Below, piece by piece: positions 25,083 through 41,322 of a stretch of 64,000 nucleotides of DNA (position 1 is the first letter of the stretch; each line of letters begins with the position of its first letter). The stretch spans positions 10,941 to 74,940 of the forward strand of contig DAINDE010000009.1 of NCBI GenBank assembly GCA_036732025.1, in the 5' to 3' direction. Made by a program: the position numbers and the translations under genes. The stretch is from Rhodocyclaceae bacterium. Lineage in GTDB: Bacteria > Pseudomonadota > Gammaproteobacteria > Burkholderiales > Rhodocyclaceae. The notes under the pieces were generated by a model that did no database searches, was not told the DNA's origin, and saw only the letters and a list, made by a program, of their open reading frames with translations.

Positions 25083-26738
25083 ATGAACAACATCCTGTCC
25101 GCATCGCGTCTGGCCCGTTTCTTCATCACCGTGGCGGGTGCCTGGGCGGTGGCGCCGGCCAGCCTTTCCGCCGCGACCATCGAGAGCGCCGTGGCTACCG
25201 GCAATCTCGGCTTGTTTGGCGCGGCCGATTTTCGCCTGGCGACGGGCCGCTGTACCGACTGCCCCGCTGAAAAGCAGGCCATGTGGTATTTCGGGGACGA
25301 TACGGTGGCGGTCCCCAAGGCCGGGGCAGGGGGATTCTCGCCCCGGCTCAGGGCGCAGGAGGACGTCCGTGAGTGGCAGGTACGACGGAGTGGCCGGGAG
25401 GGGGCGGAGCGGCCATCTCCGGTGTGGATCGGTTCGCCGGAGAAAGCCGCTGGCTGGACCCTGGCCGATGACGGCGCCAGTATGCTCGGCCGGGATGGCA
25501 GTGCCCGCCCGTTTGCCCTGGTTCCCAAGATCGAGGCGAATCGCTCCTATTTCGATGCCGCCAGCCGAAGCTATTTCGCCGGCCGTCCCCTGATCCTGCG
25601 GGGCCGCACGGAGGGCGGTCGCTTTGTGGCCCGAACGCTATGGCCGGAGGATTTTGCCCTGGACAACCCGCCGGCGGCGCCCCTCGGCGCCGGTGAAACG
25701 CTGGCCGGCCTGGTACGGGCGGAGGACGGCGGCGCACGGGCCCCCCTTGCCGCCCGGGTACTCTGGCAAAAGGACGGGGGCAAGCCGGTGGCGCTTGCCG
25801 GAAAGCCGGTCCTCACCTTCATGCTCAACGGTGCCCAGGGCGACGACGACGAAGCCCACGGCGGCCACTTCGCCATCGCCACCGGGCGCTTCGGCCCCCA
25901 CGGGGAGTGGGGCGACTGGCTGGTGAACAACTTCTACGGTCTCGATTCCTACAGCGAAAAGGGCATCGTGGCGTCCATGCTGCCCATGGATGCCTACATG
26001 GGCGACCTGAACTCAGGACAGTCCTGGTACCGTCCCTCCCACATGCTGGTGGCGGTGCTCAAGGATGAACGGGCGGCGCGGGAGTACCAGGGGGCCATTG
26101 CCCGGGTTTTCACCCATTTCTACCGTCATGACTTCGTCTATCGCCACGCCACCGCCAATTGCGCCGGCATCAGCCTGGAAACCCTGCGCACCCTGGGCTG
26201 GAACATTCCCAAGGAGGGCGCGACCAATCGCCTGAAGGCTGTCGTGGCGCTGCCCTACATGGCCATCAAGGAGGGCAGCCTGGAGAGCGGCAAGAAAGCC
26301 TACGACTACCTGTCCGCGGAAGTGACCGATCTTTATCCCTTCGTCGCCTTCGACGCCATCGGCCGCGACCTGCTGGGCCGCGTCACCCGGGGTGGCGCCC
26401 ATGGGGGGCTGGAGCAATGGCTGGCCGAGGATGTGGAGGCGCTGGTTTTCGTGCGCATTCCCCAGTTTCCCTCGTCCCGGGCTTTCGGCCGGGCGCCGGT
26501 GGCGTCCTTTGACGAATACATGAGCCGCGTCCCCGAGGACCGGGAGAAATGGCAGGTAGTGCCGGTACCGCCGCGGCCCTTCCCGCCGGAGATGAAGGAT
26601 GCCGCTGCGCCCGCCGACGAATGGGAGCCGTCCTCCTACGCTGTCGCCGCCTATGGCGGATTCTTCGGCCTGGCGTCGGTGGCCGTGGTCCGCCGGCGCA
26701 AGGCGAAGGCCGGCAAGGGGAAAGGAGGCCGGAAATGA
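25083..26738 (+). CDS. exported, C-terminally membrane-anchored hypothetical protein with a His...Asn-Cys signature
   Basis: 551 aa from ATG 25083; the upstream part of the 642-aa track ORF overlaps the amidohydrolase. Signal peptide MNNILSASRLARFFITVAGAWAVAPASLSA. Conserved-looking EAHGGHFAIATG and YRHATANCAGISLETL. C-terminal TM AVAAYGGFFGLASVAVV plus a basic tail. Confidence 0.75.
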   Translation: MNNILSASRLARFFITVAGAWAVAPASLSAATIESAVATGNLGLFGAADFRLATGRCTDCPAEKQAMWYFGDDTVAVPKAGAGGFSPRLRAQEDVREWQVRRSGREGAERPSPVWIGSPEKAAGWTLADDGASMLGRDGSARPFALVPKIEANRSYFDAASRSYFAGRPLILRGRTEGGRFVARTLWPEDFALDNPPAAPLGAGETLAGLVRAEDGGARAPLAARVLWQKDGGKPVALAGKPVLTFMLNGAQGDDDEAHGGHFAIATGRFGPHGEWGDWLVNNFYGLDSYSEKGIVASMLPMDAYMGDLNSGQSWYRPSHMLVAVLKDERAAREYQGAIARVFTHFYRHDFVYRHATANCAGISLETLRTLGWNIPKEGATNRLKAVVALPYMAIKEGSLESGKKAYDYLSAEVTDLYPFVAFDAIGRDLLGRVTRGGAHGGLEQWLAEDVEALVFVRIPQFPSSRAFGRAPVASFDEYMSRVPEDREKWQVVPVPPRPFPPEMKDAAAPADEWEPSSYAVAAYGGFFGLASVAVVRRRKAKAGKGKGGRK

Positions 26739-28618
26739 GCAGCCAGTTCCAGTTGCTGCAGGAGCGCCGCTTCCGGCCCTTCTTCTTCACCCAGTTCCTG
26801 GGGGCCTTCAACGACAACGTCTTCAAGACCGCCCTGATCACCCTGGTGACCTTTCGTGCCGGGCAACTGACCGACATCGACGGCAAGACCCTGGCAACCT
26901 TGCTGCCGGGGCTCTTCATCCTGCCCTTCTTCCTCTTTTCCGCCACCAGCGGACAGATCGCCGACAAATTCGAAAAATCCGCCGTCGCCCGGGCGGTCAA
27001 GGTCTTCGAGATCGGCATCATGTTGCTCGCCGCCTGGGGTTTCCTCAACAACAGCCTGTGGCCCCTGGTGGGCGCCCTGTTCCTGATGGGCGTACATTCG
27101 ACCCTGTTCGGGCCGGTGAAATACTCCTACCTGCCCCAGCACCTCAGGGAAGAGGAACTGGTCGGCGGCAACGGCATGATCGAGATGGGAACCTTCGTCG
27201 CCATCCTGGTGGGGGAGATCCTCGGCGCCTGGCTGGCCACCTCAAGCTTCGGCCCCGGCCTTACCGCCGCCGTGGTGGTGGGGGTGGCGGTGGCAGGCTA
27301 CTGGGTGAGCCGGAGCATTCCCCTGTCGCCCGCCGCCGACCCGGGCCTGAAGATCAACTGGAACCCGGTCACGGAAACCTGGAACAACCTGCGCTTTGCC
27401 CATGGCAACCGGACCGTGTGGCTTTCCCTCCTGGGCATCTCCTGGTTCTGGTTCTACGGGGCTACGGTGCTGGCCCAGTTCCCCACCTACGCCAAGGAGG
27501 TACTCCATGGCGACGAGAGCGTTTTCATCCTCCTGCTGGCGGTATTCTCCTTCGGCATCGGCGCCGGTTCGCTCCTCTGCGAAAAGCTCTCCGGGCACAA
27601 GGTGGAGATCGGCCTGGTTCCCTTCGGCGCCATCGGCCTCACGGTCTTCGGCGTCGAACTCTACTTCGCCACGCCGGGAGGCCTGGCGCCGACGGAGCAG
27701 TGGAACTGGTCGGCCTTCCTCGGCCAGGCAGCACACTGGCGCGTGCTTGCCGACGTGGTCCTGCTCGGGCTCTTCGGCGGCTTCTACATCGTTCCCCTCT
27801 ATGCCCTGATCCAGACCCGCAGCGAGAAGAGCCACCAGTCCCGGGTCATCGCCGCCAACAACATCCTCAACGCCTTGTTCATGGTGGTCTCGGCCCTGGT
27901 GTCGATGGTGCTGTTCCAGCTTGGGCTGACCATTCCGCAGCTATTCCTGGCGACGGCGCTGTTCAACGCGGTGGTGGCGATCTACATCTATTCGCTGGTG
28001 CCGGAATTTCTCCTGCGCTTCATCGTCTGGATGCTGATCCATACCATCTACCGCCTCGACTGCCGTGGCGTCGAGGAACAGGTGCCGGACCAGGGCGGCG
28101 CCCTTATCGTCTGCAACCACGTGAGCTTCGTCGACGCCCTGGTGATCGCCGCCGCCTGCCGTCGTCCGATCCGCTTCATCACCGACCACAATGTCTTCCG
28201 GCTGCCGATCCTGAACTTCGTATTCCGGGAATCCCGGGCCATTCCCATCGCTTCCGCCAAGGAAGACCCGGCGATGATGGAGCGGGCCTTCGACGAAGCC
28301 GCCCGCGCCCTGGCGGCGGGCGAGCTGGTCGGTATCTTTCCCGAGGGGAAGGTGAGCGAGGACGGGGATATCCACACCTTCCGCCCGGGGTTTCGCCGTA
28401 TCCTGGAGCGCAGTCCGGCGCCGGTGGTGCCCCTGGCCCTGCGCGGCCTGTGGGGGAGCTTCTTTTCCCGGGTGGAGGGCAGCGCCATGAAGCGGCCGTT
28501 CCGCCGGGGGATGTTCTCGCGCATCGCCCTGGTGGCGGGGACGCCCATTCCGCCGGCGGAGGCATCGCCGGAGCGCCTGCAGGCGGCGGTGACGGCCCTG
28601 CGGGGCGAGCAACGCTAA
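26735..28618 (+). CDS. lplT: lysophospholipid transporter LplT (MFS) fused to a C-terminal PlsC-type acyltransferase
   Basis: 627 aa from ATG 26735 (ATGA overlap with the upstream stop). MSSQFQLLQERRFRPFFFTQFLGAFNDNVFK and 12 TM-like segments are typical of LplT. The C-terminal domain has the HX4D box NHVSFVDA and FPEGKVSEDG. Confidence 0.85.
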   Translation: MSSQFQLLQERRFRPFFFTQFLGAFNDNVFKTALITLVTFRAGQLTDIDGKTLATLLPGLFILPFFLFSATSGQIADKFEKSAVARAVKVFEIGIMLLAAWGFLNNSLWPLVGALFLMGVHSTLFGPVKYSYLPQHLREEELVGGNGMIEMGTFVAILVGEILGAWLATSSFGPGLTAAVVVGVAVAGYWVSRSIPLSPAADPGLKINWNPVTETWNNLRFAHGNRTVWLSLLGISWFWFYGATVLAQFPTYAKEVLHGDESVFILLLAVFSFGIGAGSLLCEKLSGHKVEIGLVPFGAIGLTVFGVELYFATPGGLAPTEQWNWSAFLGQAAHWRVLADVVLLGLFGGFYIVPLYALIQTRSEKSHQSRVIAANNILNALFMVVSALVSMVLFQLGLTIPQLFLATALFNAVVAIYIYSLVPEFLLRFIVWMLIHTIYRLDCRGVEEQVPDQGGALIVCNHVSFVDALVIAAACRRPIRFITDHNVFRLPILNFVFRESRAIPIASAKEDPAMMERAFDEAARALAAGELVGIFPEGKVSEDGDIHTFRPGFRRILERSPAPVVPLALRGLWGSFFSRVEGSAMKRPFRRGMFSRIALVAGTPIPPAEASPERLQAAVTALRGEQR

Positions 28619-28918: not shown

Positions 28919-31642
28919 ATGTGGCTGGTCGGCATGATCGTGGGGCTGGTGCTGGGGGCGCCCTTCGGCAGCGAAGCGGCGGTGGGCGGGGCGCTCATGG
29001 GCCTGCTGGCGGGCGTGGTTGCCGGATCGCTGCGCAAGCCGCAGGAAGGCGAGACCACGGCGGCCACGGCGCAGCGCCTGCAGTTGCTGGAGCAGCAGGT
29101 GGCCTGGCTGCATCGGGAAACCCAGCGCCTGCGGGGCGAACTGGCGGCGTTGCGGGGAGGCGAGGCGCCTGCCGGGGCCACGTCGCCCCCGGCGGAGGTG
29201 CCGCCAGAGGCTATGCCCGAAACGCCCCCGGCCGTTGCCGAAGCGCCGGCCGTCTTCATCGACGAGACGCCGACCCGGCCGGGCATCGATCTGCCGGCCG
29301 CCGAGCCGGCGCCAGCGGTGCGGCCCGGGCCGGCCCCGGTGCCACCGGAGCCGACCCTCTGGCAGCGGCTCATGGCCGGCAACCCCCTGGCCAAGATCGG
29401 CGTCGTCCTGCTCTTCTTCGGCGTCGCCTCAGCCCTGCGGCTGGCGGCGGACTACGGCTTCCTGCCGGTACCGTTGCGCCTGCTGCTGGGAGCGGTGGCG
29501 GGGACGGCGATGATCGCCTTCGGCTGGCACAAGGTGCGCCAGGGCGGCCACTTCGCCTTCGCCATCGCCCTCCAGGGGGGCGGCTTCGCCATCCTCTACC
29601 TGATCGTCTACTTCATGCTGGCCCGCTACGGCCTGCTCGGGCCGACGCCGTCCTTCGCCCTCTTCGCCATTCTCGGTGTGGTCTGCGTGCTCCTGGCCGC
29701 CGCCCAGGATGGCGTGGTGCTGGCGGTGTTCGGCCTGGCCGGCGCCTTCGCCGCGCCGGTGCTGGCCTCCACCGGCAGTGGCGAGCCCCTGGGCCTCTTC
29801 GGTTACTTCGTCCTGCTCAACGCCTTCATCGTCGGCGTCTCCTGGTTCAAGGCCTGGCGGCCGCTCAACGTCACCGGCTTCTTCTTCACCCTCGGCGTCG
29901 GCGTGGCCTGGGCCATGCAGCATTACCACGCCGGCCACCACGACGTGTGCCAGGGCTTCCTCATCTTCTTCTGGGCGCTCTACGCCGTGACGCCAGTGGC
30001 CATGGCCCTCTTCCGGGCGCCGGGCTGGGCGGGGTGGAGCGACGCCACCCTGGTCTTCGGCACGCCCCTGGTGGGCTTCGCCCTGCAATCGCAACTGGCG
30101 GCGGACCGCTACGAACTGGCCTGGGCGGCCTTCGCCGCGGCGCTCGCCTATGGCGCCCTGTGGGGCCTGCTCTTCCGCCGGGGCGAAGAAGAAAGCCGCC
30201 TGCTGGAGCGCTGCCAGCTCGGCCTGGCCATCGCCTTCGCCACCCTGGCGGTGCCGCTTGCCTTCGGCGTCCAGGTGACGGCAGCCTTCTGGGCCCTGGA
30301 GGGCGTCGCCGTACTGTGGTTCGGCGTGGCGCAAGCCCGGCGCCTGGCCATGGCCACCGGCGCCCTGCTGCAGGGGGCGGCCGGCGCCTATTTCCTCTAC
30401 GGCCTGGAGCGGATGCACACCGCCCTGCCGGTGATCAACGACGTCTGCCTGGGGGCCGTGCTCCTGGCCGGGGCCGGCTTCGCCAGTGCCCGCCTGTTGC
30501 GCCGCTTCGCCGAGGGGCCGGCGGCGGGGGCGCTGCTGTGGGCCTTCGCCTGGTGGTGCTTCGCCGGCGGCTTCGAGCTCGACCGCCTTGCCTCCCCATC
30601 CCTCGGCGTGCCGCTCATGCTCGCCTACGTCGCCGGCTCCCTGGCGGCCCTGGAAATCCTCGGCCGGAGCGAGGGCTGGCGGGCGGCCCGCCACCTATCG
30701 TTGCTGCTCCTGCCCGCTCTCTGGCTGGCGGCGGCCTCCACCTTCGATCACGACCACCATTTCCTGGCCGGCCTGATGGTCATCGTCCTGCCCCTGGCCC
30801 TGGGGCTTCATTACTGGGTACTCGCCCGGCAGGAGGCGGACGAAGCGGCCCTGTGGCCGACGCTGCGCCACGTGGGCGGCTTCTGGCTCGCCATGGCGCT
30901 GGTTACCGTGGAACTGGCCTGGCTGGGCGACCGCCTGGCGCCGGGGGTACGGCTGTGGCCGCTGCTCGCCGCCGCCGTCGGCCCGGCCCTGGGCCTCTGG
31001 GCGGCGCTCGCCGGCGAGCGCCGGCAACTACCGCCGGTGGCCGGCCACGGCTTCGCCTACCTGGGCTTCGGGGCGCTGCTGCCGGCGGTGTTCCTGGCCG
31101 GCTGGTCCGTCTTCGCCAACTTCGACCATGCCGGGGGCGGTTCTGGCCTGCCCTACGTGCCTATCCTCAATCCCTTCGACCTGGTGCAACTGGCCGCCAT
31201 GGGCGCGCTTTTCGCCTGGTTGTGCAAACTTGACGAAGAACCCATGGCCGGCATGCCGGTGCCGCGACCCGCCTGGGTGGGCGTCCTCGCCTTCATCTGG
31301 GTGAGCTGCCTCGCCGCCCGCATTGCTCACCATTGGGGCGGCGTTCCCTTCACCGGCCATCACCTGTGGCAGTCCACCCTGCTGCAGGCGCTGCTGACGC
31401 TCTTGTGGACAGCGCTCGCCATCGCCGCCATGATCGCCGCCACCCGGGTCGGGGTGCGCCGCCTTTGGCAGGGGGGCTTCGCCCTGCTGGCGGTGGTGGG
31501 GGCCAAGCTGATGCTGGTCGATCTGGCCAACGCCGGTACCCTGGTGTGGACCGGCTCCCTCATCGGCGTCGCCCTGCTGGTGTTGGCCGCCGGCTACTTC
31601 GCCCCGGCGCCGCCGGCGGCCGACAAGGAGAAAACGACATGA
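28919..31642 (+). CDS. DUF2339-type polytopic membrane protein
   Basis: 907 aa. N-terminal TM, coiled coil (QRLQLLEQQVAWLHRETQRLRGELAAL) and a Pro-rich linker. These are followed by more than 15 predicted TM helices starting NPLAKIGVVLLFFGVASALRLAADYG. The family name is from memory. Confidence 0.75.
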   Translation: MWLVGMIVGLVLGAPFGSEAAVGGALMGLLAGVVAGSLRKPQEGETTAATAQRLQLLEQQVAWLHRETQRLRGELAALRGGEAPAGATSPPAEVPPEAMPETPPAVAEAPAVFIDETPTRPGIDLPAAEPAPAVRPGPAPVPPEPTLWQRLMAGNPLAKIGVVLLFFGVASALRLAADYGFLPVPLRLLLGAVAGTAMIAFGWHKVRQGGHFAFAIALQGGGFAILYLIVYFMLARYGLLGPTPSFALFAILGVVCVLLAAAQDGVVLAVFGLAGAFAAPVLASTGSGEPLGLFGYFVLLNAFIVGVSWFKAWRPLNVTGFFFTLGVGVAWAMQHYHAGHHDVCQGFLIFFWALYAVTPVAMALFRAPGWAGWSDATLVFGTPLVGFALQSQLAADRYELAWAAFAAALAYGALWGLLFRRGEEESRLLERCQLGLAIAFATLAVPLAFGVQVTAAFWALEGVAVLWFGVAQARRLAMATGALLQGAAGAYFLYGLERMHTALPVINDVCLGAVLLAGAGFASARLLRRFAEGPAAGALLWAFAWWCFAGGFELDRLASPSLGVPLMLAYVAGSLAALEILGRSEGWRAARHLSLLLLPALWLAAASTFDHDHHFLAGLMVIVLPLALGLHYWVLARQEADEAALWPTLRHVGGFWLAMALVTVELAWLGDRLAPGVRLWPLLAAAVGPALGLWAALAGERRQLPPVAGHGFAYLGFGALLPAVFLAGWSVFANFDHAGGGSGLPYVPILNPFDLVQLAAMGALFAWLCKLDEEPMAGMPVPRPAWVGVLAFIWVSCLAARIAHHWGGVPFTGHHLWQSTLLQALLTLLWTALAIAAMIAATRVGVRRLWQGGFALLAVVGAKLMLVDLANAGTLVWTGSLIGVALLVLAAGYFAPAPPAADKEKTT

Positions 31643-31950: not shown

Positions 31951-32184
31951 ATGGATTTCCTCAAGTTCCTCTTCAAGGCCTGTGTCCTGATCCTGGGGCT
32001 GTTGCTCATCGCCGGCGGCGGCCTGGTGAGTCTGTGCGGGGTGCTGGTCCACGACGGCTCCGTCCTGCTCCTCGGATTCTTGCCGCTTGCACTCGGCATC
32101 CTTGGTCTGGTGTTTGTTTTCCGGGGTAAGCCGACGCAGGATTCCGGGGCCGGGTCGCCCAACAGCCCGGAGAATCTGCCTTGA
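31951..32184 (+). CDS. two-TM miniprotein, paralogue 3 (77 aa)
   Basis: The ATG immediately follows the TAA of the previous gene. MDFLKFLFKACVLILGLLLIAGGGLVSLC (Cys29), a loop, a second TM, FRGK, then a Ser/Pro/Gly tail. Confidence 0.7.
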   Translation: MDFLKFLFKACVLILGLLLIAGGGLVSLCGVLVHDGSVLLLGFLPLALGILGLVFVFRGKPTQDSGAGSPNSPENLP

Positions 32185-32930
32185 TCGCTCCGCAATACGC
32201 AGCCTTTGTACATGGCTGCTTTGAAATGCTGGCCCTGGCCGCCGGGGTCGCCTACTACCGCCGCCTGCGGGCGCGGGCGGGGGGCGGCGATCTGCTGCAC
32301 GGCGCCGAGTTCGCCGTCGCCGCCGGCTGCATCTTCGGCGCTGCCCTGGGCAACAAGCTGGTCTTCTGGGCCGAGGTGCCCCACCTGCTGCCGCTCTATT
32401 GGGACAGGCCGGAAGCCTGGCTGGGTGGGCAGTCCATGGTGGGTGGCCTGCTCGGCGGGCTGATCGGCGTCGAGATCGCCAAGAAGCTCACCGGGGTTGT
32501 CCGCTCCACCGGCGATGCCTTCGTCTTCCCCGTCCTCCTCGGGCTGATGATCGGCCGCGTCGGCTGCTTCCTTGCCGGGCTGGCCGACGGTACCTATGGT
32601 CTGCCGACGGGGCTGCCCTGGGGAGTGGATTTCGGCGACGGTATTCGCCGGCATCCGACCCAGCTCTACGAAATCGCTTTCGCCGGGGTGATGTGGCTTG
32701 CCTTGCGGTATTTGCAACCGTCCCTTGCCGGGCAACCCGGCTTGCTCTTCAAGACAATGCTCTGCGCCTATCTCGTCTGGCGGCTGGCGATCGATTCCCT
32801 CAAGCCCGTGCCCTTTGCTTATCCCTTCGGGGCTTCCGGCATCCAGTGGGTTTGCCTGGTTGCCCTGGTCGCCTATCTTCCGCTGGCCTGGCGGCAATGG
32901 CAGCGGCTCAGGCACTTGGCCACTGCCTGA
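32181..32930 (+). CDS. diverged prolipoprotein diacylglyceryl transferase (Lgt) family protein
   Basis: 249 aa with TTG start overlapping the upstream stop; an alternative ATG is at 32226. Three blocks are collinear with the Lgt motifs GGMSFHGGLIG, GRLGNFINGE and RHPSQLYE as I recall them from E. coli: GGQSMVGGLLGGLIG, GRVGCFLAGLADG and RRHPTQLYE. Confidence 0.8.
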   Translation: MIAPQYAAFVHGCFEMLALAAGVAYYRRLRARAGGGDLLHGAEFAVAAGCIFGAALGNKLVFWAEVPHLLPLYWDRPEAWLGGQSMVGGLLGGLIGVEIAKKLTGVVRSTGDAFVFPVLLGLMIGRVGCFLAGLADGTYGLPTGLPWGVDFGDGIRRHPTQLYEIAFAGVMWLALRYLQPSLAGQPGLLFKTMLCAYLVWRLAIDSLKPVPFAYPFGASGIQWVCLVALVAYLPLAWRQWQRLRHLATA

Positions 32931-33007
32931 AACCATGCAAATCACGGAATCGGATTCCACGATTACAAGGATGTTCGAGTGCCATCCATCTCCCTGAGAA
33001 ACCCAAA

Positions 33008-34432
33008 ATGACCCGCAAAAACCGCCCCTGGCTCTTTTACGACACCACCGCCTCCGTCTGCACCACCTGCCTGCGCCAGGTGGAGGCCAAGGTGGTCATC
33101 AAGGGGGACGAGGTCTTCCTCGACAAGTGGTGCCCGGCCCACGGCAGCGAGCGGGTGCTGATCGCCGACGATGCCGATTACTACCGCCTGGGCCGCGAGG
33201 TGTACGTCAAGGCGCCGGAAATGCCGGAGCGCTTCAACACGGAAATGCGCCACGGTTGCCCTTACGACTGCGGCCTTTGCCCGGACCACATGCAGCATTC
33301 CTGCCTCTCGGTGGTGGAGATCACCGAGCACTGCAACCTGCGCTGCCCGGTGTGCTACGCGGAATCGGGGCCGGAGCGGCAGGCCCATCGGTCGCTGGCG
33401 GAGGTGGAGGCCATGCTCGACACCGTCGTCGCCAACGAGGGGGAGCCGGATGTCGTGCAGCTTTCCGGCGGCGAGCCGACCCTGCACCCGGACTTCTTCG
33501 CCATCCTCGACGCCGCCAAGGCCCGGCCCATCCGCCATCTGATGATCAATACCAACGGCCTGCGGCTGGCCAGGGAGCCGGACTTCGTCGCCCGCCTGGC
33601 GGCCTACAGGCCGGGGATCGAGATCTATCTGCAGTTCGATTCCCTGCGGGACGAGGTTCTGCAACAGTTGCGGGGCGCCGATCTGGCCGAGATCCACGAG
33701 CGGGCCCTGGCCAACCTGGAAGCCCACGGCATCTCGACCACCCTCGTCATGACCGTCAAGCGCGGGGTGAACGATGGCGAGATCGGCGCCGTCATCCGCC
33801 ACGGCCTCAAATACCGCTGCGTGCGCGGCGTCACCCTGCAGCCGGTGTCCGACGCCGGCCGCAACCTGGATTTCGACGCTCGCCGCCATCGCCTGACGGT
33901 GAGCGAGGTGCGCCGCCGCGTCGCCGAGCAGTCGGCGTTGTTCAGCCTCGACGACATCGTTCCCGTTCCCTGCAACCCGGACACCCTGGCCATGGGCTAC
34001 GCCGTCAAGCTGGGCGGCGAGGTGCTGCCCCTGACCCGCCACCTGGGGCCGGAAGCCCTGCTGGCCGGGCCGCGCAACACCATCGTCTTCGAGCGCGATC
34101 CGGCGATGAAGGAGGCCGTGTTCAAGCTCTTCTCCACCAACCACTCGCCGGAGACGCAAGCCAACTGCCTGTCGGCGCTCCTCTGTTGCCTGCCGACGGT
34201 GGCGGCGCCGGAGCTGAGCTACGAAAACGTCTTCCGCGTCCTCATCGTCCAGTTCATGGACGCCGCCAACCTGGACCTGCGGGCGTTGAAGAAATCCTGC
34301 GTCCATTTCGCCCAGCCCGACGGGCGCCTTATCCCCTTCGAGGCCTACAATCTTTTCTACCGGGGCGAACGGGCGGCGAAGACGGCGGAGATCCAGGCGG
34401 AAATCCGCGAGGCGGCCATGCGGCGCCGCTGA
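33008..34432 (+). CDS. radical SAM enzyme of the MJ0619 / tetraether-synthase (Tes, GDGT-MAS)-like class
   Basis: 474 aa from ATG 33008. N-terminal Cys/His knuckle SVCTTC...WCPAHG, auxiliary cluster motif GCPYDCGLCPDHMQHSC and radical SAM CNLRCPVCYA (CX3CX2C). SAM-binding LSGGEPTLHPDF and C-terminal VQFMDAANLDLRALKKSCVHFAQPDGRLIPFEAYN. The subfamily call is from memory. Confidence 0.8.
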   Translation: MTRKNRPWLFYDTTASVCTTCLRQVEAKVVIKGDEVFLDKWCPAHGSERVLIADDADYYRLGREVYVKAPEMPERFNTEMRHGCPYDCGLCPDHMQHSCLSVVEITEHCNLRCPVCYAESGPERQAHRSLAEVEAMLDTVVANEGEPDVVQLSGGEPTLHPDFFAILDAAKARPIRHLMINTNGLRLAREPDFVARLAAYRPGIEIYLQFDSLRDEVLQQLRGADLAEIHERALANLEAHGISTTLVMTVKRGVNDGEIGAVIRHGLKYRCVRGVTLQPVSDAGRNLDFDARRHRLTVSEVRRRVAEQSALFSLDDIVPVPCNPDTLAMGYAVKLGGEVLPLTRHLGPEALLAGPRNTIVFERDPAMKEAVFKLFSTNHSPETQANCLSALLCCLPTVAAPELSYENVFRVLIVQFMDAANLDLRALKKSCVHFAQPDGRLIPFEAYNLFYRGERAAKTAEIQAEIREAAMRRR

Positions 34433-34517
34433 GCCTGGGTTTTTCCCGATTCCGGTGGGGGAACCTTTGCGCGAAGCTGTAGCCTGACACACTTCCCAGC
34501 TTTTGCCGCGCCACCCG

Positions 34518-35729
34518 ATGACTGACAACAAGCCCGCCTCCCTCGCTCCCGTCCTCCTCTTCGCCGCCGGCATCGTCTGCGTGGCCATGGGCATTCGCCA
34601 CACCTTCGGCCTCTTCCTGGCGCCGATGACCACGGATCACCAGTGGGGGCGGGAGGTGTTCTCCTTCGCCATCGCCCTGCAGAACCTGGCCTGGGGCGCC
34701 GCCCAGCCCTTCGCCGGGCTGCTCGCCGACCGCTACGGCGCCAAGCGGGTGTTGTGGGGCGGCGGCGTACTCTATGCCCTGGGCCTTGCCGGCATGGCCT
34801 GGGCCAGCAACGCCACCGGCTTTGCCGCCACCGCCGGCCTGCTCATCGGCCTGGCCCAGAGCGGCACCACCTACAGCGTCGTCTTCTCGGCCCTCGGCAA
34901 GCTGGTGCCGGCCAACCGCCAGAGCTGGGCCATGGGCCTGGTGGCGGCGGCGGGTTCCTTCGGCCAGTTCCTCATGGTGCCGGTGGGCTCCGGCCTCATC
35001 GGCGGCCTGGGCTGGTTCGGCACCCTGCTGGTCTTCGCCGGGGCGGCGCTGCTCATCCTGCCCCTCGGTTCGGCCCTGGCCAGGGGCCTGGCCCCGGGTG
35101 CCGCCAGCGCCGGCCAGACGGCGGGGGAGGCGATCCGCGAAGCGGTGCGGGAGAAGAGCTTCGTCTTCCTCATGGTCAGCTACTTCGTCTGCGGCTTCCA
35201 GGTGGTGTTCATCGGCGTGCACCTGCCCACCTACCTGCTGGACAAGGGGCTGTCGGGCAACGTGGGCATGACGGCCCTGGCCCTCATCGGCCTCTTCAAC
35301 ATCGCCGGCACCTATGCCGTGGGGCAACTGGGCACCCGCTTTCCCAAGCGCTACCTGCTGGCCGGCATCTACAGCCTGCGGAGCGTGGTCATCTCGGCCT
35401 TCCTGCTGCTGCCGCTGACGCCGTGGTCGGTCTATGTCTTCGCCGCCTGCATCGGCCTCCTCTGGCTGTCCACGGTGCCGCCGACCAACGCCATCGTCGC
35501 CCAGATCTTCGGCGTCCGCTTCCTCGGCATGCTTTCCGGCCTGGTTTTCTTCAGCCACCAGATCGGCAGCTTCCTGGGGGTCTGGCTGGGCGGGCGCCTG
35601 TTCGACGCCACCGGCTCCTACGACCTGGTGTGGGGCATCTGCATCGCCCTGGGCGTGCTGGCGGCGCTTTTCAATCTGCCCATCGACGAGCGCAGCCTGG
35701 CAAGCCGGCGGGCGGCCAGTACCGCTTGA
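34518..35729 (+). CDS. MFS transporter
   Basis: 403 aa from ATG 34518 (the track ORF starts at TTG 34503). Twelve hydrophobic segments and the loop motif [12 protein letters not shown]. Confidence 0.85.
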
Positions 35730-35746: not shown

Positions 35747-36655
35747 ATGGCCGGTAAAATGCCGGCCATGAACTGGAAAGCGATCAAGGAACGCCTCGAC
35801 CTCTACGAATGCCTGATGCGGCTGGACAAGCCCATCGGCATCCTGCTCCTCCTCTGGCCCACCCTGTGGGGCCTGTGGCTGTCCGCCCTGGGGCGGCCCG
35901 ACTGGGTGGTGGTGTGGATCTTCTGCCTGGGTACCGTGCTCATGCGCTCGGCGGGCTGCGTCATCAACGATTTCGCCGACCGGGATTTCGACCGCCACGT
36001 GGAGCGGACCAGGGAGCGCCCGCTCACCGCCGGCAAGGTCAGCGCCAAGGAGGCCCTCGTCCTCTTCGCCCTGCTTTCGCTGTCGGCCTTCGCCCTGGTG
36101 CTGCTCATGGGCAATTCGCTGGTCATCTGGCTGTCGGTGCCGGCCCTCTTTCTCGCCGCCAGCTACCCCTTCACCAAGCGCTTCTTCGCCATTCCCCAGG
36201 CCTACCTGGGCATCGCCTTCGGCTTCGGTATCCCCATGGCCTATGCCGCCCACCTCGGCGAGGTGCTGCCGGAAGCCTGGTGGCTGCTGCTGGCCAACGT
36301 CTTCTGGGCCATCGCCTACGATACCGAGTACGCAATGGTGGACCGGGAAGACGACCTCAAGATCGGCATCAAGACTTCGGCGTTGACCTTCGGCCGCTAC
36401 GACGTGGCCGCCGTCATGGCCTGCTACGCCGCGGCGCTGGCGCTCATTGCCTGGGTGGGCCACGGCCTCGACATGGGCTGGGCCTTCTACGCCGGCCTGG
36501 GTGTGGCGGCTGGCATCATGGGTTGGCACTACACCCTGATCCGGGGGCGCGAGCGCATGGCCTGCTTCCGGGCGTTTCTCAACAACAACTACGTCGGGGC
36601 GGCCATCTTCGGCGGTATCGTTCTCGATTTCCTGGTCTCGGGGAGGGCTTCCTGA
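35747..36655 (+). CDS. ubiA: 4-hydroxybenzoate polyprenyltransferase
   Basis: Tail of the 670-aa track [47 protein letters not shown] and [17 protein letters not shown] are the two Asp-rich UbiA motifs. In-frame ATGs occur at 35747, 35759 and 35768, so the start is uncertain. Confidence 0.9.
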
Positions 36656-37086
36656 TGCGTGGTTCAATCGTCGCCGGCTTGGTCATGCTGGCCGTTCCCC
36701 TGTCGCTCATGGCCGAGGATGCCCGGCAGCTGGCCAAGCTGCCCGACCCCGCCCGCGCTGCGCTGCGGGAGGAGATGGTGGGCAACCTCGTTGCCCTCAA
36801 CGAGGTGCTGGCCCTGCTGGCGGTCGGCCAGACCCGGGAAGCCGGCGAGGCGGCGGAAAGGAACCTGGGGGTCTCGGCCATGGGCCGGCATCGGGACAAG
36901 CCCTTCGAGGCCCGGCCGGGGCCCCACATGCCGCCGGCGATGCACGCCCTGGGCATGGAAGGGCACAAGGCCGCCAGCGAATTCGCCCGGCTGGCCCAGG
37001 CCGGCGACCGCGACGCGGCGCTGGCGGCGCTGCCTAAGCTGACAGGGGCCTGCGTGGCGTGCCACGCTTCCTGGCGGGTTCGCTGA
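36655..37086 (+). CDS. class II (cytochrome c-prime / four-helix-bundle type) c-type cytochrome, exported
   Basis: 143 aa. The ATG shares one nucleotide with the ubiA TGA (TGATG). Signal peptide, helical sequence and a single heme motif CVACH nine residues from the C-terminus, as in class II cytochromes c. Confidence 0.7.
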   Translation: MRGSIVAGLVMLAVPLSLMAEDARQLAKLPDPARAALREEMVGNLVALNEVLALLAVGQTREAGEAAERNLGVSAMGRHRDKPFEARPGPHMPPAMHALGMEGHKAASEFARLAQAGDRDAALAALPKLTGACVACHASWRVR

Positions 37087-38404
37087 GGGCCGGTTCCGGC
37101 CGGTGGCTCCGCCACCAGGCGATGAACGCATCGACGGCCATCGGGCGGGCGTAGAGGAAACCCTGGGCGCGGTCGCCGCCGAGGCGGGCAATGACCGCCG
37201 CGACCGCGGCGGTTTCGACACCTTCGGCGATGACGCTCATCTTCAGGCGGTGGGCAAGCTTGACGATGGCGGCGATGATTTCGCGATCCTTCTTCGACTC
37301 CCCGGCGTTGCTCACGAAGCTGCGGTCGATCTTGACCTCCTGTACCGGCAGGCGCTGCAGGTAGCTCATGCCGGCGTAGCCGGTGCCGAAATCGTCCAGG
37401 GAGAGGCGCAGCCCGGCGGTGCGCAAGCGTTCCAACACATCGACCACCTGCTGCGTTTCCTCCACCATGGCGGTTTCCGTTAACTCCAGCAACAGGCGCT
37501 CCGGGGGGATTTCCCAGGTGGCGAGGCTCTGGCTGACGAGATCGGGCAGTTCGGTGTCGAGCAGGTCGCTGGCCGAGAGATTGACGGACAAGGTGATGGC
37601 GACGCCGGCCTCATCGAGGCGGGTCAGCAGTTGCATGGCCTGCTGCAGCAGCCAGCGGGTGAAGGCGGAGCGCAGGCCGAGGCGTTCGACGATGGCCAGG
37701 GTGCGTTGGGGCGGCACCCATTCGCCGTTGTCCCGCTGCCAGCGCAGCAGCGCCTCGCACCCCACGCAGGTGCCATCGGCCAGGCCCACCTGGGGTTGCA
37801 GGTGCAGGCCAAGCCCGCGGCCGCTGCCCAGGGCCAGGGCCAGTTCCGCGTGCAGGGCTTGCTGGCCGGCGTCGTTGTGTTCCATGCCGGGGTCGTAGAG
37901 GGCCTGGCCCGCGCCGTCGCGGCTGGCCGCCAGGCGGGCGATGCGGGCGGACTGGACGAGGTGCAGGGCATCTTCGCCGTGGTCCGGCCACAGGGCGCCA
38001 CCGCAGGATACCTGCAGGGCCACGGGGCCGGCGGGGGTGGAAACCGGGTCGGCGAAGAGGTGGGCCAGCTTGAGCATGGCCAGGGGCAGAGGGGCGCTGC
38101 TCGGCAGGTCAGGCAGGACTGCCAGCCATTCCCAGTGGCTGATGGTGTAGAGCCGGTCCTTCTCCTTGAGCAATTCGGCGATCCGGCGGCTGACGTCGGC
38201 GCGCAGGGCCTGGGCCGTCTCCGGCGTCAGACGGTAGAGGGCGGCATCGGGAAGGATGGCGAAGGCGATGACGCCCAGGGCGCGGTCGGCTTCCTGCCGG
38301 CGGGCCAGGTGGGGTATCTCCACCAGGGCCGAGGCGTAGCGGGGCAGGCCGGTGACATGGTCGGTCAGGTCGCTGTGCAGTTGGGCGAACGCGCTGATGG
38401 CCAT
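37034..38404 (-). CDS. degenerate-GGDEF / EAL-domain c-di-GMP phosphodiesterase
   Basis: 456 aa. The GGDEF position reads SCGGA (degenerate). The EAL domain looks intact: CEALLRW, SVNLSA, ELTE, DDFGTGYAG, KIDRSF, EGVET, QGF. The 3' end overlaps the convergent cytochrome gene by 53 nt. Confidence 0.85.
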   Translation of the reverse strand: MAISAFAQLHSDLTDHVTGLPRYASALVEIPHLARRQEADRALGVIAFAILPDAALYRLTPETAQALRADVSRRIAELLKEKDRLYTISHWEWLAVLPDLPSSAPLPLAMLKLAHLFADPVSTPAGPVALQVSCGGALWPDHGEDALHLVQSARIARLAASRDGAGQALYDPGMEHNDAGQQALHAELALALGSGRGLGLHLQPQVGLADGTCVGCEALLRWQRDNGEWVPPQRTLAIVERLGLRSAFTRWLLQQAMQLLTRLDEAGVAITLSVNLSASDLLDTELPDLVSQSLATWEIPPERLLLELTETAMVEETQQVVDVLERLRTAGLRLSLDDFGTGYAGMSYLQRLPVQEVKIDRSFVSNAGESKKDREIIAAIVKLAHRLKMSVIAEGVETAAVAAVIARLGGDRAQGFLYARPMAVDAFIAWWRSHRPEPALSEPARKRGTPRRPLSA

Positions 38405-38405
38405 G

Positions 38406-39719
38406 TCAATCCAGGTAGAAGTCGGCGGGGTTGATGCCGTAGGCGTTGTTGGGCAGCGAATGGACGATGCGGTAGGCCTCGCCGGTGCCGAAGGTGGGCT
38501 CCATGAGCAGGTCGAGGGTGCGTGGCCGCCGCTCGATGGACTTGTCCGGGCCGAGGACGACCAGGACCCGCGGCTTCAGGCGCCGGATCTGGTTCTGCTG
38601 GATGACCACCGCCACCTCGCCGCTGTTGAGTTCCACCAGGGTGCCGATGGGGTAGAGGCCGATGCACTGGACGAACTGGTCCACCACCGGTTCGCGGAAC
38701 TTGCTGCCGCGCATGCGGATGAGATCCTCCAGGGCCTTCTGGCTGGAGATGGCGGGCTGGTAGGAACGTTGCCGGGTCATGGCGCAGTAGCTGTCGATGA
38801 GGCCGGCCAGTTCGGACAGCAGACCGAGTTTTTCGCCCTTGAGGCGGCGGGGGTAGCCGCTGCCGTCGGCGCGCTCGTGGTGGCTGGCGACGATGTCCAG
38901 GGCCTCCACCGAAAACCCCGGCTGGCCGACCAGGATTTCCAGGGAACTGGCGACGTGGGACTGCACCAGGGCGTATTCTGCGTCGGTCAGCTCCCCGGGT
39001 TTGGCGAGGATGTCGCTGGGGATGTCCACCTTGCCCACGTCCTGCATCAGGCCGGCCAGCCCCAGGAGTTCGACCGACGTGGCCGGCAGGCCCAGGAAGC
39101 GGCCGAGGACCATGAGGTGCACGGAGACGTCGACGGCGTGGTCGTAGGAATACTGGTCGGCGCTTTTCAGGCGGGCCAGCCAGAGCATGGCGTCCGGGTT
39201 GCGCTCGACGGCCCGGGCCATTTCGCCGACCAGGCCGCCGACCTGCTTGATGTTGGCGCTGACGTCGGTGCCCAGGGACTCGCGGATGCTCTTGAGCGTC
39301 TTCTTGACGTCTTCGACGATGGGGGCGGAGTAGAGCAGTTCCGGTTCCAGCCGGCTCTGGTTGTCGAAGCCGCGGATGGTGGGAAACTGGGCGTAGCGCC
39401 GGCTCTGCGGCTCGACGCGGAGCATGCGGCAGATGGCGGCGAAATCGTCGGCGGCGGCGTCGTCCGCCTGCTGGAAAACGGGGGCGGGCAGGCCCCGCAG
39501 GGGCGCGTCCTTTTCCCGGGGGCGACCGGCATAGTGGGCGCCGACGGAGTGGCTGCGGTCGATGGTGACGGTCCGGCACAGGCGCTGCAGCGCGGCGATC
39601 TGCTCATCGTCCTCGACCAGGAAGCCCTGCAGGGGGAAAGGTGTCTCCAGCCACGGGCGATCCAGTTCCACCACGAACATGCCGCGCCGAATTTCGCTCG
39701 TGGGGATGACGGACTTCAC
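38406..39719 (-). CDS. HD-GYP domain c-di-GMP phosphodiesterase with DUF3391-like N-terminal domain
   Basis: 437 aa. N-terminus MKSVIPTSEIRRGMFVVELDRPWLETPFP. The HD domain has YDHAVDVSVH and HHERADGSGYP. The stop lies 1 nt before the downstream EAL gene start. Confidence 0.88.
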   Translation of the reverse strand: MKSVIPTSEIRRGMFVVELDRPWLETPFPLQGFLVEDDEQIAALQRLCRTVTIDRSHSVGAHYAGRPREKDAPLRGLPAPVFQQADDAAADDFAAICRMLRVEPQSRRYAQFPTIRGFDNQSRLEPELLYSAPIVEDVKKTLKSIRESLGTDVSANIKQVGGLVGEMARAVERNPDAMLWLARLKSADQYSYDHAVDVSVHLMVLGRFLGLPATSVELLGLAGLMQDVGKVDIPSDILAKPGELTDAEYALVQSHVASSLEILVGQPGFSVEALDIVASHHERADGSGYPRRLKGEKLGLLSELAGLIDSYCAMTRQRSYQPAISSQKALEDLIRMRGSKFREPVVDQFVQCIGLYPIGTLVELNSGEVAVVIQQNQIRRLKPRVLVVLGPDKSIERRPRTLDLLMEPTFGTGEAYRIVHSLPNNAYGINPADFYLD

Positions 39720-39852: not shown

Positions 39853-41322
39853 ATGAAATACCACGATTTGCGCGACTTCCTGTCGCAACTGGAGCAGCGC
39901 GGCCAATTGAAGCGGGTCGGCGCCGAGGTGGATACCTATCTCGAAATGACCGAGATCTGCGACCGTGTCCTGCGCGCCGCCGGGCCGGCCATCCTCTTCG
40001 AGAATCCCAGGGGCCACGCCATGCCGGTGCTGGCCAACCTCTTCGGCACCCCGGAGCGGGTGGCCCTGGGCATGGGCGAAGAGGGCGACTGGCGGCAGGC
40101 CCTGCGCGAGGTGGGCAAGCTGCTCGCGTACCTCAAGGAGCCGGAGCCGCCCAAGGGCCTGAAGGACGCCTGGGACAAGCTGCCCATCCTCAAGCAGGTG
40201 CTCAACATGGCGCCGAAAAAGGTGTCCTCGGCCCCCTGCCAGGAGATCGTCTGGGAAGGCAAGGACGTCGATCTCTCCCGCCTGCCCATCCAGCACTGCT
40301 GGCCCGGCGACGTGGCGCCGCTGATCACCTGGGGCCTGGTGGTCACCCGCGGTCCCCACAAGAACCGCCAGAACCTGGGCATCTACCGCCAGCAGGTGCT
40401 GGGACCGAACAAGGTGATCATGCGCTGGCTGGCCCACCGCGGCGGGGCCCTGGATTTTCGCGACCATCAGCTGGCCAGGCCCGGGGAGCCCTTCCCGGTG
40501 GCGGTGGTGCTCGGCTGCGACCCAGCCACCATCCTCGGCGCCGTGACGCCGGTGCCCGACACCCTCTCCGAATACCAGTTCGCCGGGCTGCTCCGCGGCG
40601 GCAAGACGGAACTCACCCAGTGCCTGGGTTCCGAACTGCAGGTGCCGGCCTCCGCCGAGATCGTGCTGGAAGGCGCCATCCATCCCGGCGAGACGGCCCT
40701 CGAAGGCCCCTACGGCGACCACACCGGCTACTACAACGAGCAGGCGGAGTTCCCGGTGTTCACCATCGAGCGCATCACCATGCGCAGGAATCCCATCTAC
40801 CACAGCACCTACACCGGCAAACCGCCCGACGAGCCGGCCATCCTCGGGGTCGCCCTGAACGAGGTGTTTGTGCCGCTGTTGCAGAAGCAGTACCCGGAAA
40901 TCGTCGATTTCTACCTGCCGCCGGAGGGCTGTTCCTACCGCATGGCCATCGTGTCCATCAAGAAGCAGTACCCCGGCCACGCCAAGCGCATCATGTTCGG
41001 CATCTGGTCCTTCCTGCGCCAGTTCATGTACACCAAGACCATCATCGTGGTGGACGACGACGTGAACATCCGCGACTGGAAGGAGGTGGTCTGGGCCATC
41101 ACCACCCGCATGGACGCCAGCCGCGACACCACCCTCGTCGACAACACCCCCATCGACTACCTCGACTTTGCCAGCCCGGTGGCCGGTCTTGGCTCCAAGA
41201 TGGGGCTCGACGCCACCAACAAGTGGCCCGGCGAGACCAGCCGCGAATGGGGGCGGCCCATCGTCATGGACGACGCGGTGAAGCGGCGGGTGGACGGCAT
41301 GTGGGCGGAGCTGGGGCTGTGA
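39853..41322 (+). CDS. ubiD: 4-hydroxy-3-polyprenylbenzoate decarboxylase
   Basis: 489 aa. [22 protein letters not shown]...[12 protein letters not shown]..., full-length UbiD pattern. Confidence 0.95.

Follow-up and report, generated by a model that had tools for sequence, protein, structure and literature searches.

In Escherichia coli the prolipoprotein diacylglyceryl transferase Lgt, whose C-terminus is cytoplasmic, uses two arginines, a tyrosine and a glutamate to hold and activate phosphatidylglycerol. Work by Pailler in 2012 and by Mao in 2016 is said to have identified Y26, H103, R143, N146, E151, G154, Y235, R239 and E243 as the essential or important residues of this enzyme; the classical lipoboxes need Gly, Ala or Ser at position -1. 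A very different lipid enzyme is the archaeal tetraether synthase Tes (glycerol dialkyl glycerol tetraether-macrocyclic archaeol synthase, GDGT-MAS; MJ0619), an S-adenosylmethionine (SAM) radical enzyme whose C-terminal cluster forms a carbon-sulfur intermediate, in which Met439 and Tyr459 are invariant among 1000 archaeal homologues and which, when purified from E. coli, holds bacterial phospholipids in its tail pockets (PMC9433317). [quoted passage not shown] A 2026 review lists them as bioinformatic matches only (PMC13459092), and they do not track the producers of iso-diabolic acid, for which Mss, another enzyme, has been identified (PMC13159169). Here we describe a locus of a Rhodocyclaceae bacterium in which diverged relatives of Lgt and of Tes are encoded side by side. 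It lies in a stretch of 64,000 nucleotides (assembly GCA_036732025.1, contig DAINDE010000009.1, positions 10,941 to 74,940), the whole of which is referred to below as the window. Judging from sequence comparisons, we put at about even the chance that this pair is the enzymatic core of a widespread three-part membrane module for Cys-directed lipidation or lipid-tail modification.

The Lgt-like protein is homologous to Lgt over its full length. Its open reading frame (ORF) carries three Lgt-type blocks (GGQSMVGGLLGG, GRVGCFLAGLADG and RRHPTQLYE), residues 11-235 match Pfam LGT (PF01790) at model positions 14-237 of 240 with 76.7 bits and, as in the E. coli enzyme (PDB 5AZB/5AZC; TIGR00544, PF01790), seven transmembrane helices are predicted; the periplasmic head region is shorter than that of E. 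coli Lgt. An AlphaFold2 model of the protein has seven long helices, with a local confidence score (pLDDT) of 86.9 and a predicted template-modelling score (pTM) of 0.84. Identity to E. coli Lgt is about 26% (tblastn E=0.019; E=0.004 against the sequence of the Lgt structure), and the two lgt equivalog models score the protein well below their cut-offs (NF000778, 34.8 bits against 334; TIGR00544, 30.3 against 118.9). Because it matches Pfam LGT along its whole length and yet falls so far short of the equivalog cut-offs, we consider it a paralogue and not the housekeeping enzyme; there is no canonical lgt within the 64-kb window. The gene callers start this gene at ATG 32226, giving a 234-residue product, but the family-invariant His11 and Glu15 are encoded upstream of that codon, and since the shorter form would lose both, TTG 32181 is the better start.

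When 70 Lgt-like sequences from a wide range of phyla, with a median of 39% identity to the window protein, are mapped onto E. coli Lgt, the set of residues reportedly needed by that enzyme is found to be only partly retained. The equivalents of R143 (R126), Y235 (Y197) and R239 (R201) are kept in all 70 sequences, and position 205, which corresponds to E243, is Asp or Glu throughout. Also retained are the GG...GG block, R195-H196-P197 (R157 in 70/70, H158 in 69/70 and P159 in about 99%) and E202 (E164, Glu in 66 sequences and Asp in 4). By contrast, Y26 is replaced by H11 (His in 68/70) and N146 by C129 (Cys in 70/70), H103 corresponds to Val, Met or Leu at position 87 (Val in the window protein) and E151 to mostly Leu, Val or Ile at position 134 (Leu in the window protein); the position of G154 is variable. 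The family also has new invariants, namely E98, K101, D112, D153, K208 and Q222, of which K101, D153 and Q222 are each present in 70/70. Given these conserved residues, the protein still looks like an enzyme. According to the positive-inside rule and to homology, R126, C129, D153, R157, Y197 and R201 should lie in its periplasmic half, with E98, K101 and D112 on the cytoplasmic face, where they might touch the radical SAM partner. An Lnt-like triad of E98, K101 and C129 was considered and rejected, since the predicted topology would put these residues on different sides: E98 and K101 where helix 3 meets the cytoplasm, C129 where helix 4 meets the periplasm.

The radical SAM protein has the architecture of Tes. 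Its ORF contains C18xxC21...C42xxH45, CPYDCGLCPDHMQHSC, CNLRCPVC, GGEPTLHPDF and CVHFAQPDGRLIPFEAYN, Pfam assigns it Zn_ribbon_HMPTM and Radical_SAM domains, and the match to the GDGT-MAS structure 7TOL has E=4.5e-61, with identities of 31% (314 residues) and, for the C-terminal 60 residues, 40%. In a Foldseek search the AlphaFold model (pLDDT 80.7, pTM 0.85) finds 7tom and 7tol at E=1e-35 with template-modelling (TM) scores of 0.78 and 0.75, over some 500 columns for 7tom, while all other radical SAM structures, SkfB and SuiB included, fit it at the level of the core only (TM about 0.36). The four-domain architecture and three metal sites are common to the window enzyme and to GDGT-MAS (MJ0619; 7TOL/7TOM). 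Among 81 sequences of the family, the rubredoxin-type site C18/C21/C42/H45 (C9/C12/C33/H36 of the M. jannaschii enzyme), the N-terminal auxiliary cluster site C84/C88/C91 with H94/H97 (the window protein also has C99) and the SAM cluster C109/C113/C116 are all conserved.

The C-terminal part is another matter. Where archaeal Tes has Met439 the window protein has V414 (Met in 48/81 and Val in 27/81 across the family), and Tyr459 corresponds to F434 (Ile or Phe across the family). The M. jannaschii cysteines C438, C455 and C470 are Ile, Ser and Glu/Asp in the family (I413, S430 and E445 in the window protein). In addition to C431, which aligns with C456 of M. jannaschii, the family conserves C322, C393 and C394, which archaeal Tes does not share; the second lipid-pocket region is shorter in this bacterial enzyme. 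It is plausible that an auxiliary cluster is bound at this rewired set of C-terminal cysteines. The Tes model NF045702 gives the window protein 259.6 bits, below its cut-off of 450. Because this cut-off is missed, Met439 and Tyr459 are changed and three of the four C-terminal cysteines are replaced, the Tes mechanism is not simply transferable and carbon-carbon coupling of lipid tails cannot be assumed.

The best-scoring curated model is instead that of TrsS (NF045646), which aligns residues 13-450 with model positions 2-432 of 441 at 336.8 bits, again below the cut-off (490); in contrast to TrsS, a radical SAM (seleno)protein, no selenocysteine codon is evident in the gene. The peptide-maturase models of NCBIfam reach 33-59 bits, and neither the domain scan nor the fold comparison revealed a SPASM/twitch auxiliary or peptide-recognition domain. 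Among Pfam and NCBIfam there is no curated model for this radical SAM clade or for its partners. Mss, known from the anaerobes Thermotoga and Thermoanaerobacter, is likewise a radical SAM enzyme that acts on bacterial acyl-chain tails, in its case with no Lgt partner reported; the literature description sets it apart as a separate radical SAM lineage, remotely related to Tes (PMC13159169). Q47J15 of Dechloromonas aromatica RCB and a protein of Azonexus sp. share the 90% identity cluster of the window protein, and the host is accordingly a betaproteobacterium of the Azonexaceae/Dechloromonas type. Members of the wider Zn_ribbon_HMPTM radical SAM family are also found fused to a class-I methyltransferase, a MobA-like nucleotidyltransferase (with or without HD) or DUF5714 (P0322, P0351, P0376, P0337), and because it has these several partner types besides Lgt, the wider family must be functionally diverse.

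A preliminary description of this locus had already called the Lgt-like gene a diverged paralogue and assigned its neighbor to the Tes class. All of the sequence strings that it quoted are present in the two ORFs. The E. coli motifs that it cited were checked on the K-12 lgt gene, where SFHGG is residues 101-105 and the GRLGNF/NGELWG block GRLGNFINGELWG is residues 142-154; both motifs are correct, as are the substitutions His103 to Val and Asn146 to Cys. The family models it had proposed as a check bear out both identities (PF01790 at full length; Zn_ribbon_HMPTM with Radical_SAM), the equivalog scores agree with its view that the gene is not the housekeeping one, and the Tes architecture is confirmed by the 7TOL match and the model (TM 0.78). 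Membership in Tes proper, in contrast, has to be given up in view of the missed cut-off and the altered C-terminal residues.

The association of the two genes is both tight and widespread. Of at least 523 relatives of the radical SAM protein we took the 80 best (53-95% identity), with one genome per species. They span Beta-, Gamma- and Alphaproteobacteria, Acidobacteriota, Bacillota (Paenibacillus, Fictibacillus, Heyndrickxia and Bacillus), Bacteroidota, Planctomycetota, Cyanobacteriota, Myxococcota and others, the closest being an Azonexaceae metagenome-assembled genome with 95% identity. Searched with a hidden Markov model (HMM) of the Lgt-like family, 72 of the 80 loci, drawn from at least eight phyla, turn out to encode a member on the strand of the radical SAM gene, 56 of them within 150 nt upstream of it. 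Five of the eight loci without it are cut by a contig end; in the other three (L033, L035 and L081) it is absent despite 6 kb of sequence on each side. The converse sample, 80 metagenome loci seeded from the Lgt-like protein, has a radical SAM gene downstream in 63, and in 14 of the other 17 loci the sequence runs on for less than 1.5 kb downstream. In either direction, about 96% of the loci that can be assessed show the linkage. The genes of Ferriphaselus amnicola overlap by 4 nt, in surroundings that are otherwise unrelated, and no other gene family of 70 residues or more is conserved around the pair. Moreover, there are at least 57 clusters of natural fusions of LGT, Zn-ribbon and radical SAM domains (656-825 residues), drawn from several data sources and including Tepidisphaerales and Verrucomicrobiota, which retain R126, C129, D153, H158, Y197 and Q222. 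The order of their domains fits both the Lgt topology, with its cytoplasmic C-terminus, and the need of an iron-sulfur enzyme for the cytoplasm. This two-way linkage across phyla, together with the fusions, supports the functional coupling of the Lgt-like and radical SAM proteins. The pairing suggested in the preliminary description therefore holds across genomes, but it is no betaproteobacterial oddity, given its occurrence in Pseudomonadota, Acidobacteriota, Bacillota, Bacteroidota, Planctomycetota, Cyanobacteriota, Myxococcota and others.

Some individual loci depart from the simple arrangement. In Fischerella sp. PCC 9431 (L081, 6001-7770) the radical SAM gene is followed by a small protein with a Cys tail (...LLNGGCWIWF...), and the Lgt-like partner may be encoded elsewhere. 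The 95%-identical Azonexaceae relative (L005, 4080-5993) has a 2-kb insert between the Lgt-like and radical SAM genes that carries a 400-residue P-loop ATPase-like ORF and a 237-residue ORF and resembles a mobile or defence-type insertion. The DUF2339 gene and the transporter gene that flank the locus in the window (28919-31642 and 34503-35729) were considered as members of the module and rejected, being syntenic in L005 only. A scan for promoters and terminators from 28.5 to 36 kb gave no signal of relevance to operon structure that exceeded what shuffled sequence would give.

A third component, overlooked in the preliminary description, consists of small membrane proteins encoded next to the pair whose Cys resembles that of a lipobox. 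In the window two such ORFs precede the Lgt-like gene, and the TGA stop of the second overlaps the TTG start of that gene. Small ORF 1, whose product is a candidate acceptor or partner, is called as a gene on identical Logan contigs and has an orthologue at the same place in L005. Upstream of the Lgt-like gene, L005, L006 and L009 carry small ORFs of this type in tandem, and L010, L011 and L012 carry one each. In all, one or more same-strand ORFs of 40-140 residues in which a hydrophobic helix has a Cys at its C-terminal end stand beside the pair in 64 of the 80 genome loci, and L008 joins them if an over-extended start is allowed for. Such a Cys is present in 89 of 108 small hydrophobic ORFs adjacent to the pair and in 64 of 190 control ORFs (82% against 34%, Fisher p=1.4e-16), the controls lying more than 1.5 kb from the pair and being a mix of real and spurious ORFs. 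The enrichment is repeated in the independent metagenome loci (45/52 adjacent ORFs against 7/18 controls).

The residues around this Cys are mostly Gly, Ala or Ser at -2, Ile, Leu, Ala, Val or Thr at -1 and Gly, Ser, Phe or Ala at +1. The position of the genes varies with the phylum. In Betaproteobacteria they are upstream, with the Cys after helix 1, and in Acidobacteriota they lie between the two enzyme genes (e.g. ...SLGLCGVNF...; L024 has two copies in tandem). For Bacteroidota, Bacillota, Cyanobacteriota and Planctomycetota the place is directly downstream, and the Cys stands 5-12 residues before the C-terminus (...SLGICGAM..., ...LLNAACFGL..., ...GVSVCS...). They are often in tandem copies and occur downstream of the fused Lgt-radical SAM genes as well. 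The Cys tail is also carried by unrelated N-terminal parts, both Zn-ribbon proteins (L040, L047, L041 and L043; Paenibacillus, Planctomycetes) and larger proteins (L044, L048), which is what one would expect if it were a recognition tag. Whatever the type, the helix with the Cys at its end comes after a stretch of positive charge, and the Cys should accordingly sit at the outer leaflet like that of a lipobox. With a positively charged stretch, then a hydrophobic helix and the Cys at the outer end of this helix, the candidate acceptor would be arranged as in Lgt substrates. The small ORFs do not, however, carry the classical lipobox [LVI][ASTVI][GAS]C after an N-terminal signal peptide, in spite of the similar topology; in most phyla their Cys comes after the last helix, near the C-terminus, and it is position -2 that holds Gly, Ala or Ser, with a bulky residue at -1.

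What the small Cys proteins share is an architecture and a motif, and we claim nothing more. The idea of one homologous family was rejected: single linkage with phmmer joins 72 of the proteins, yet HMM cross-searches barely exceed the reversed and shuffled controls. A scan of 18 of them found no Pfam or NCBIfam family. Four proteins from Bacteroidota (L052, L069, L071 and L073) have sub-threshold matches (10-15 bits; cut-off 37) to NF058595, the "lipo-invert putative C-terminal anchoring domain", and we found no literature on "lipo-invert".

Considered together, these components suggest a module of three parts. The first would be one to three small membrane proteins, or larger ones with the same tail, bearing the motif [G/A/S]-[I/L/V/A/T]-C-[G/S/F/A], whose Cys is predicted at the outer-leaflet end of a helix after a positively charged cytoplasmic segment, in the topology of a lipoprotein signal peptide. 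The second would be the seven-helix enzyme of Lgt fold, with its presumed phosphatidylglycerol-handling residues kept and an invariant Cys in place of Asn146, and the third the presumably cytoplasmic Tes-type radical SAM enzyme, translationally coupled or fused to the cytoplasmic C-terminus of the second. In such a system the Lgt-like subunit would bind a glycerophospholipid, whose diacylglyceryl part it would pass on or tether to the small protein's Cys, while the radical SAM subunit, before or after the transfer, would take a hydrogen from an unactivated carbon of the lipid tail. The radical on the tail could then give rise to a cross-linked, cyclised or otherwise functionalised lipid, and the outcome would be an unusual lipid attached to a small membrane protein or peptide. 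The module occurs in at least ten phyla of bacteria and probably represents a new kind of protein or lipid modification. A much more specific version of this proposal would have the Lgt paralogue lipidate the Cys of the small protein or tail, and the Tes-type enzyme rewire the tails into a cross-link, a macrocycle or a membrane-spanning form, all as one lipidation pathway in more than 500 species of at least ten phyla; this we regard as possible, but on balance doubtful.

A number of observations weigh against this proposal. The Cys and the Lgt-like active site are both predicted on the outer face, across the membrane from the cytoplasmic iron-sulfur enzyme, and in the radical SAM model residues 354-401, which correspond to the region of the second lipid pocket in GDGT-MAS and form a shorter stretch than there, have pLDDT below 50. 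Homology among the types of small protein is not demonstrable by HMM cross-searches, their -1 residue is bulky by the standard of the classical lipobox, about 20% of the loci have no adjacent small Cys protein, and the controls for the Cys enrichment are of mixed quality. Finally, Foldseek lists no PDB match with E<1 for the AlphaFold2 model of the Lgt-like protein, 5azb not being among the matches, although we do not count this against homology.

These facts could also be read in other ways. The module might remodel free lipids, the radical SAM enzyme performing a Tes-like coupling or macrocyclisation of tails on bacterial phospholipids, with the Lgt-like protein serving to anchor or present phosphatidylglycerol and the small proteins as accessories. 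The retention of the GDGT-MAS fold with three of its four metal sites, the binding of E. coli phospholipids by GDGT-MAS itself (PMC9433317), the phospholipid-binding arginines kept in the Lgt-like protein and the published proposal that bacterial Tes homologues make membrane-spanning lipids (PMC8941075) are all consistent with such a role. Yet the enzyme scores 259.6 bits where the Tes model asks for 450, it has Val for Met439 and Phe for Tyr459, C438, C455 and C470 are replaced, and the second lipid pocket is reduced. Among iso-diabolic-acid acidobacteria only 3 of 14 have Tes homologues, and the other producers have none (PMC13159169). A mere anchor would need neither an invariant active-site Cys nor a conserved catalytic core, and the Cys motif of the neighboring proteins would be left unaccounted for. 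We therefore consider free-lipid remodelling improbable, if still a serious contender. It is the adjacent Cys-motif proteins that move the weight from an unusual free lipid to a lipid-anchored or modified protein; the latter was the secondary idea of the preliminary description, whose main reading was the former.

An alternative that takes the small proteins seriously but dispenses with lipid transfer is that the radical SAM enzyme modifies them directly, by a thioether or cross-link near the Cys, and that the Lgt-like protein is a scaffold or processing factor. Tandem, short and variable genes beside a radical SAM gene do look like those of precursor peptides, and Tes itself bonds a substrate carbon to cluster sulfur (PMC9433317). 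In L085 and L086, moreover, the fused genes are coupled to one for a rhodanese-like membrane protein, although its rhodanese match is below the Pfam cut-off (19 against 22.2 bits). We nevertheless think direct peptide chemistry quite unlikely: the enzyme has no SPASM/twitch or peptide-recognition domain and has the fold of a lipid enzyme, the Cys is predicted on the membrane face opposite to it, and the Lgt-like protein keeps the residues that handle phosphatidylglycerol. The ordinary interpretation, a housekeeping lgt next to an unrelated gene such as a pterin methylase by chance, has in its favor the PF01790 match and the fact that the Joint Genome Institute (JGI) names many of the homologues 7,8-dihydro-6-hydroxymethylpterin dimethyltransferase. 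It is refuted in practice, and we give it next to no credence, considering equivalog scores of 30-35 bits against cut-offs of 119-334, the replacement of the essential Y26, N146 and E151, and a linkage of about 96% of assessable loci both ways on top of the fusions; the pterin assignment of MJ0619 is itself uncorroborated, that enzyme having been shown to be a tetraether synthase (PMC9433317).

The rhodanese-like protein just mentioned is polytopic, has 432-474 residues and is encoded upstream of the fused gene, overlapping its start (L085, 1580-3004; L086, 1703-3001). It has a rhodanese-like CxxGxxS loop and a Cys-rich stretch, which may hint at sulfur chemistry in those lineages. As to the names in the databases, the JGI one carries over the earlier assignment of MJ0619, and other records say "AlbA"; both pterin dimethyltransferase and "AlbA" are probably wrong for this clade.

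The enzymes of the proposed lipidation module are new, diverged members of known families, and the three-part system appears to be undescribed: we found no paper that ties bacterial Tes homologues to an Lgt paralogue or to Cys-motif membrane proteins. The Lgt-like partner is a feature of the bacterial side, Lgt homologues not having been identified in archaea (PMC12462473), and partnership or fusion with a radical SAM enzyme is likewise among the differences between the Lgt-like protein and E. coli Lgt. Bacterial Tes homologues serve as genomic hints for the producers of branched tetraethers, which are the basis of palaeotemperature and pH proxies. That a large and highly conserved subset of them is tied to an Lgt paralogue and Cys-motif proteins gives this subset a testable context, and it cautions that not every bacterial Tes match is a tetraether synthase. 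If the more specific version of the proposal is right, many "bacterial Tes homologues" are not synthases of free-lipid tetraethers, and the module would be the first link of lipoprotein-type lipidation to radical lipid-tail chemistry. A possible new protein lipidation or protein-linked lipid could be sought in common, cultured and tractable bacteria such as Dechloromonas aromatica RCB, Paenibacillus, relatives of Bacillus, Massilia and many Flavobacteriia. The analysis also corrects annotations: the names "prolipoprotein diacylglyceryl transferase" and "7,8-dihydro-6-hydroxymethylpterin dimethyltransferase", a start of the Lgt-like gene that was called too far downstream, and small ORFs that were left uncalled.

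Table 1. Features of the window in the region of the locus (coordinates are positions in the window).
Feature	Coordinates	Strand	Remarks
MFS (major facilitator superfamily) transporter fused to PF01553 acyltransferase, LplT/PlsC lysophospholipid transporter-acyltransferase type	26549-28618	+	
DUF2339 membrane protein, 907 residues	28919-31642	+	Stop overlaps start of small ORF 1 by 7 nt
Small ORF 1, two-helix membrane protein, 104 residues	31636-31950	+	Cys30 in ...ILAGGICGAIL..., outer end of helix 1
Small ORF 2, two-helix membrane protein, 77 residues	31951-32184	+	Cys29 in ...GLVSLCGVL...
Lgt-family seven-helix membrane protein, diverged paralogue, 249 residues	32181-32930	+	TTG start; Pfam LGT
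Radical SAM enzyme of GDGT-MAS/Tes architecture, 474 residues	33008-34432	+	Begins 77 nt after the Lgt-like stop
MFS transporter	34503-35729	+	70 nt after the radical SAM gene
Two adjacent signalling genes (EAL-type C-terminal half; HD-GYP-like)	37034-39719	-	From sequence appearance

Two of the neighboring features deserve a brief mention. The lipid-repair gene of LplT/PlsC type is on the same strand as the pair, 3.5 kb upstream, and is not conserved with the module. The pair of signalling genes lies between ubiA (35756-36655, from the Pfam run) and what looks, from its translation alone, like ubiD (39853-41322).

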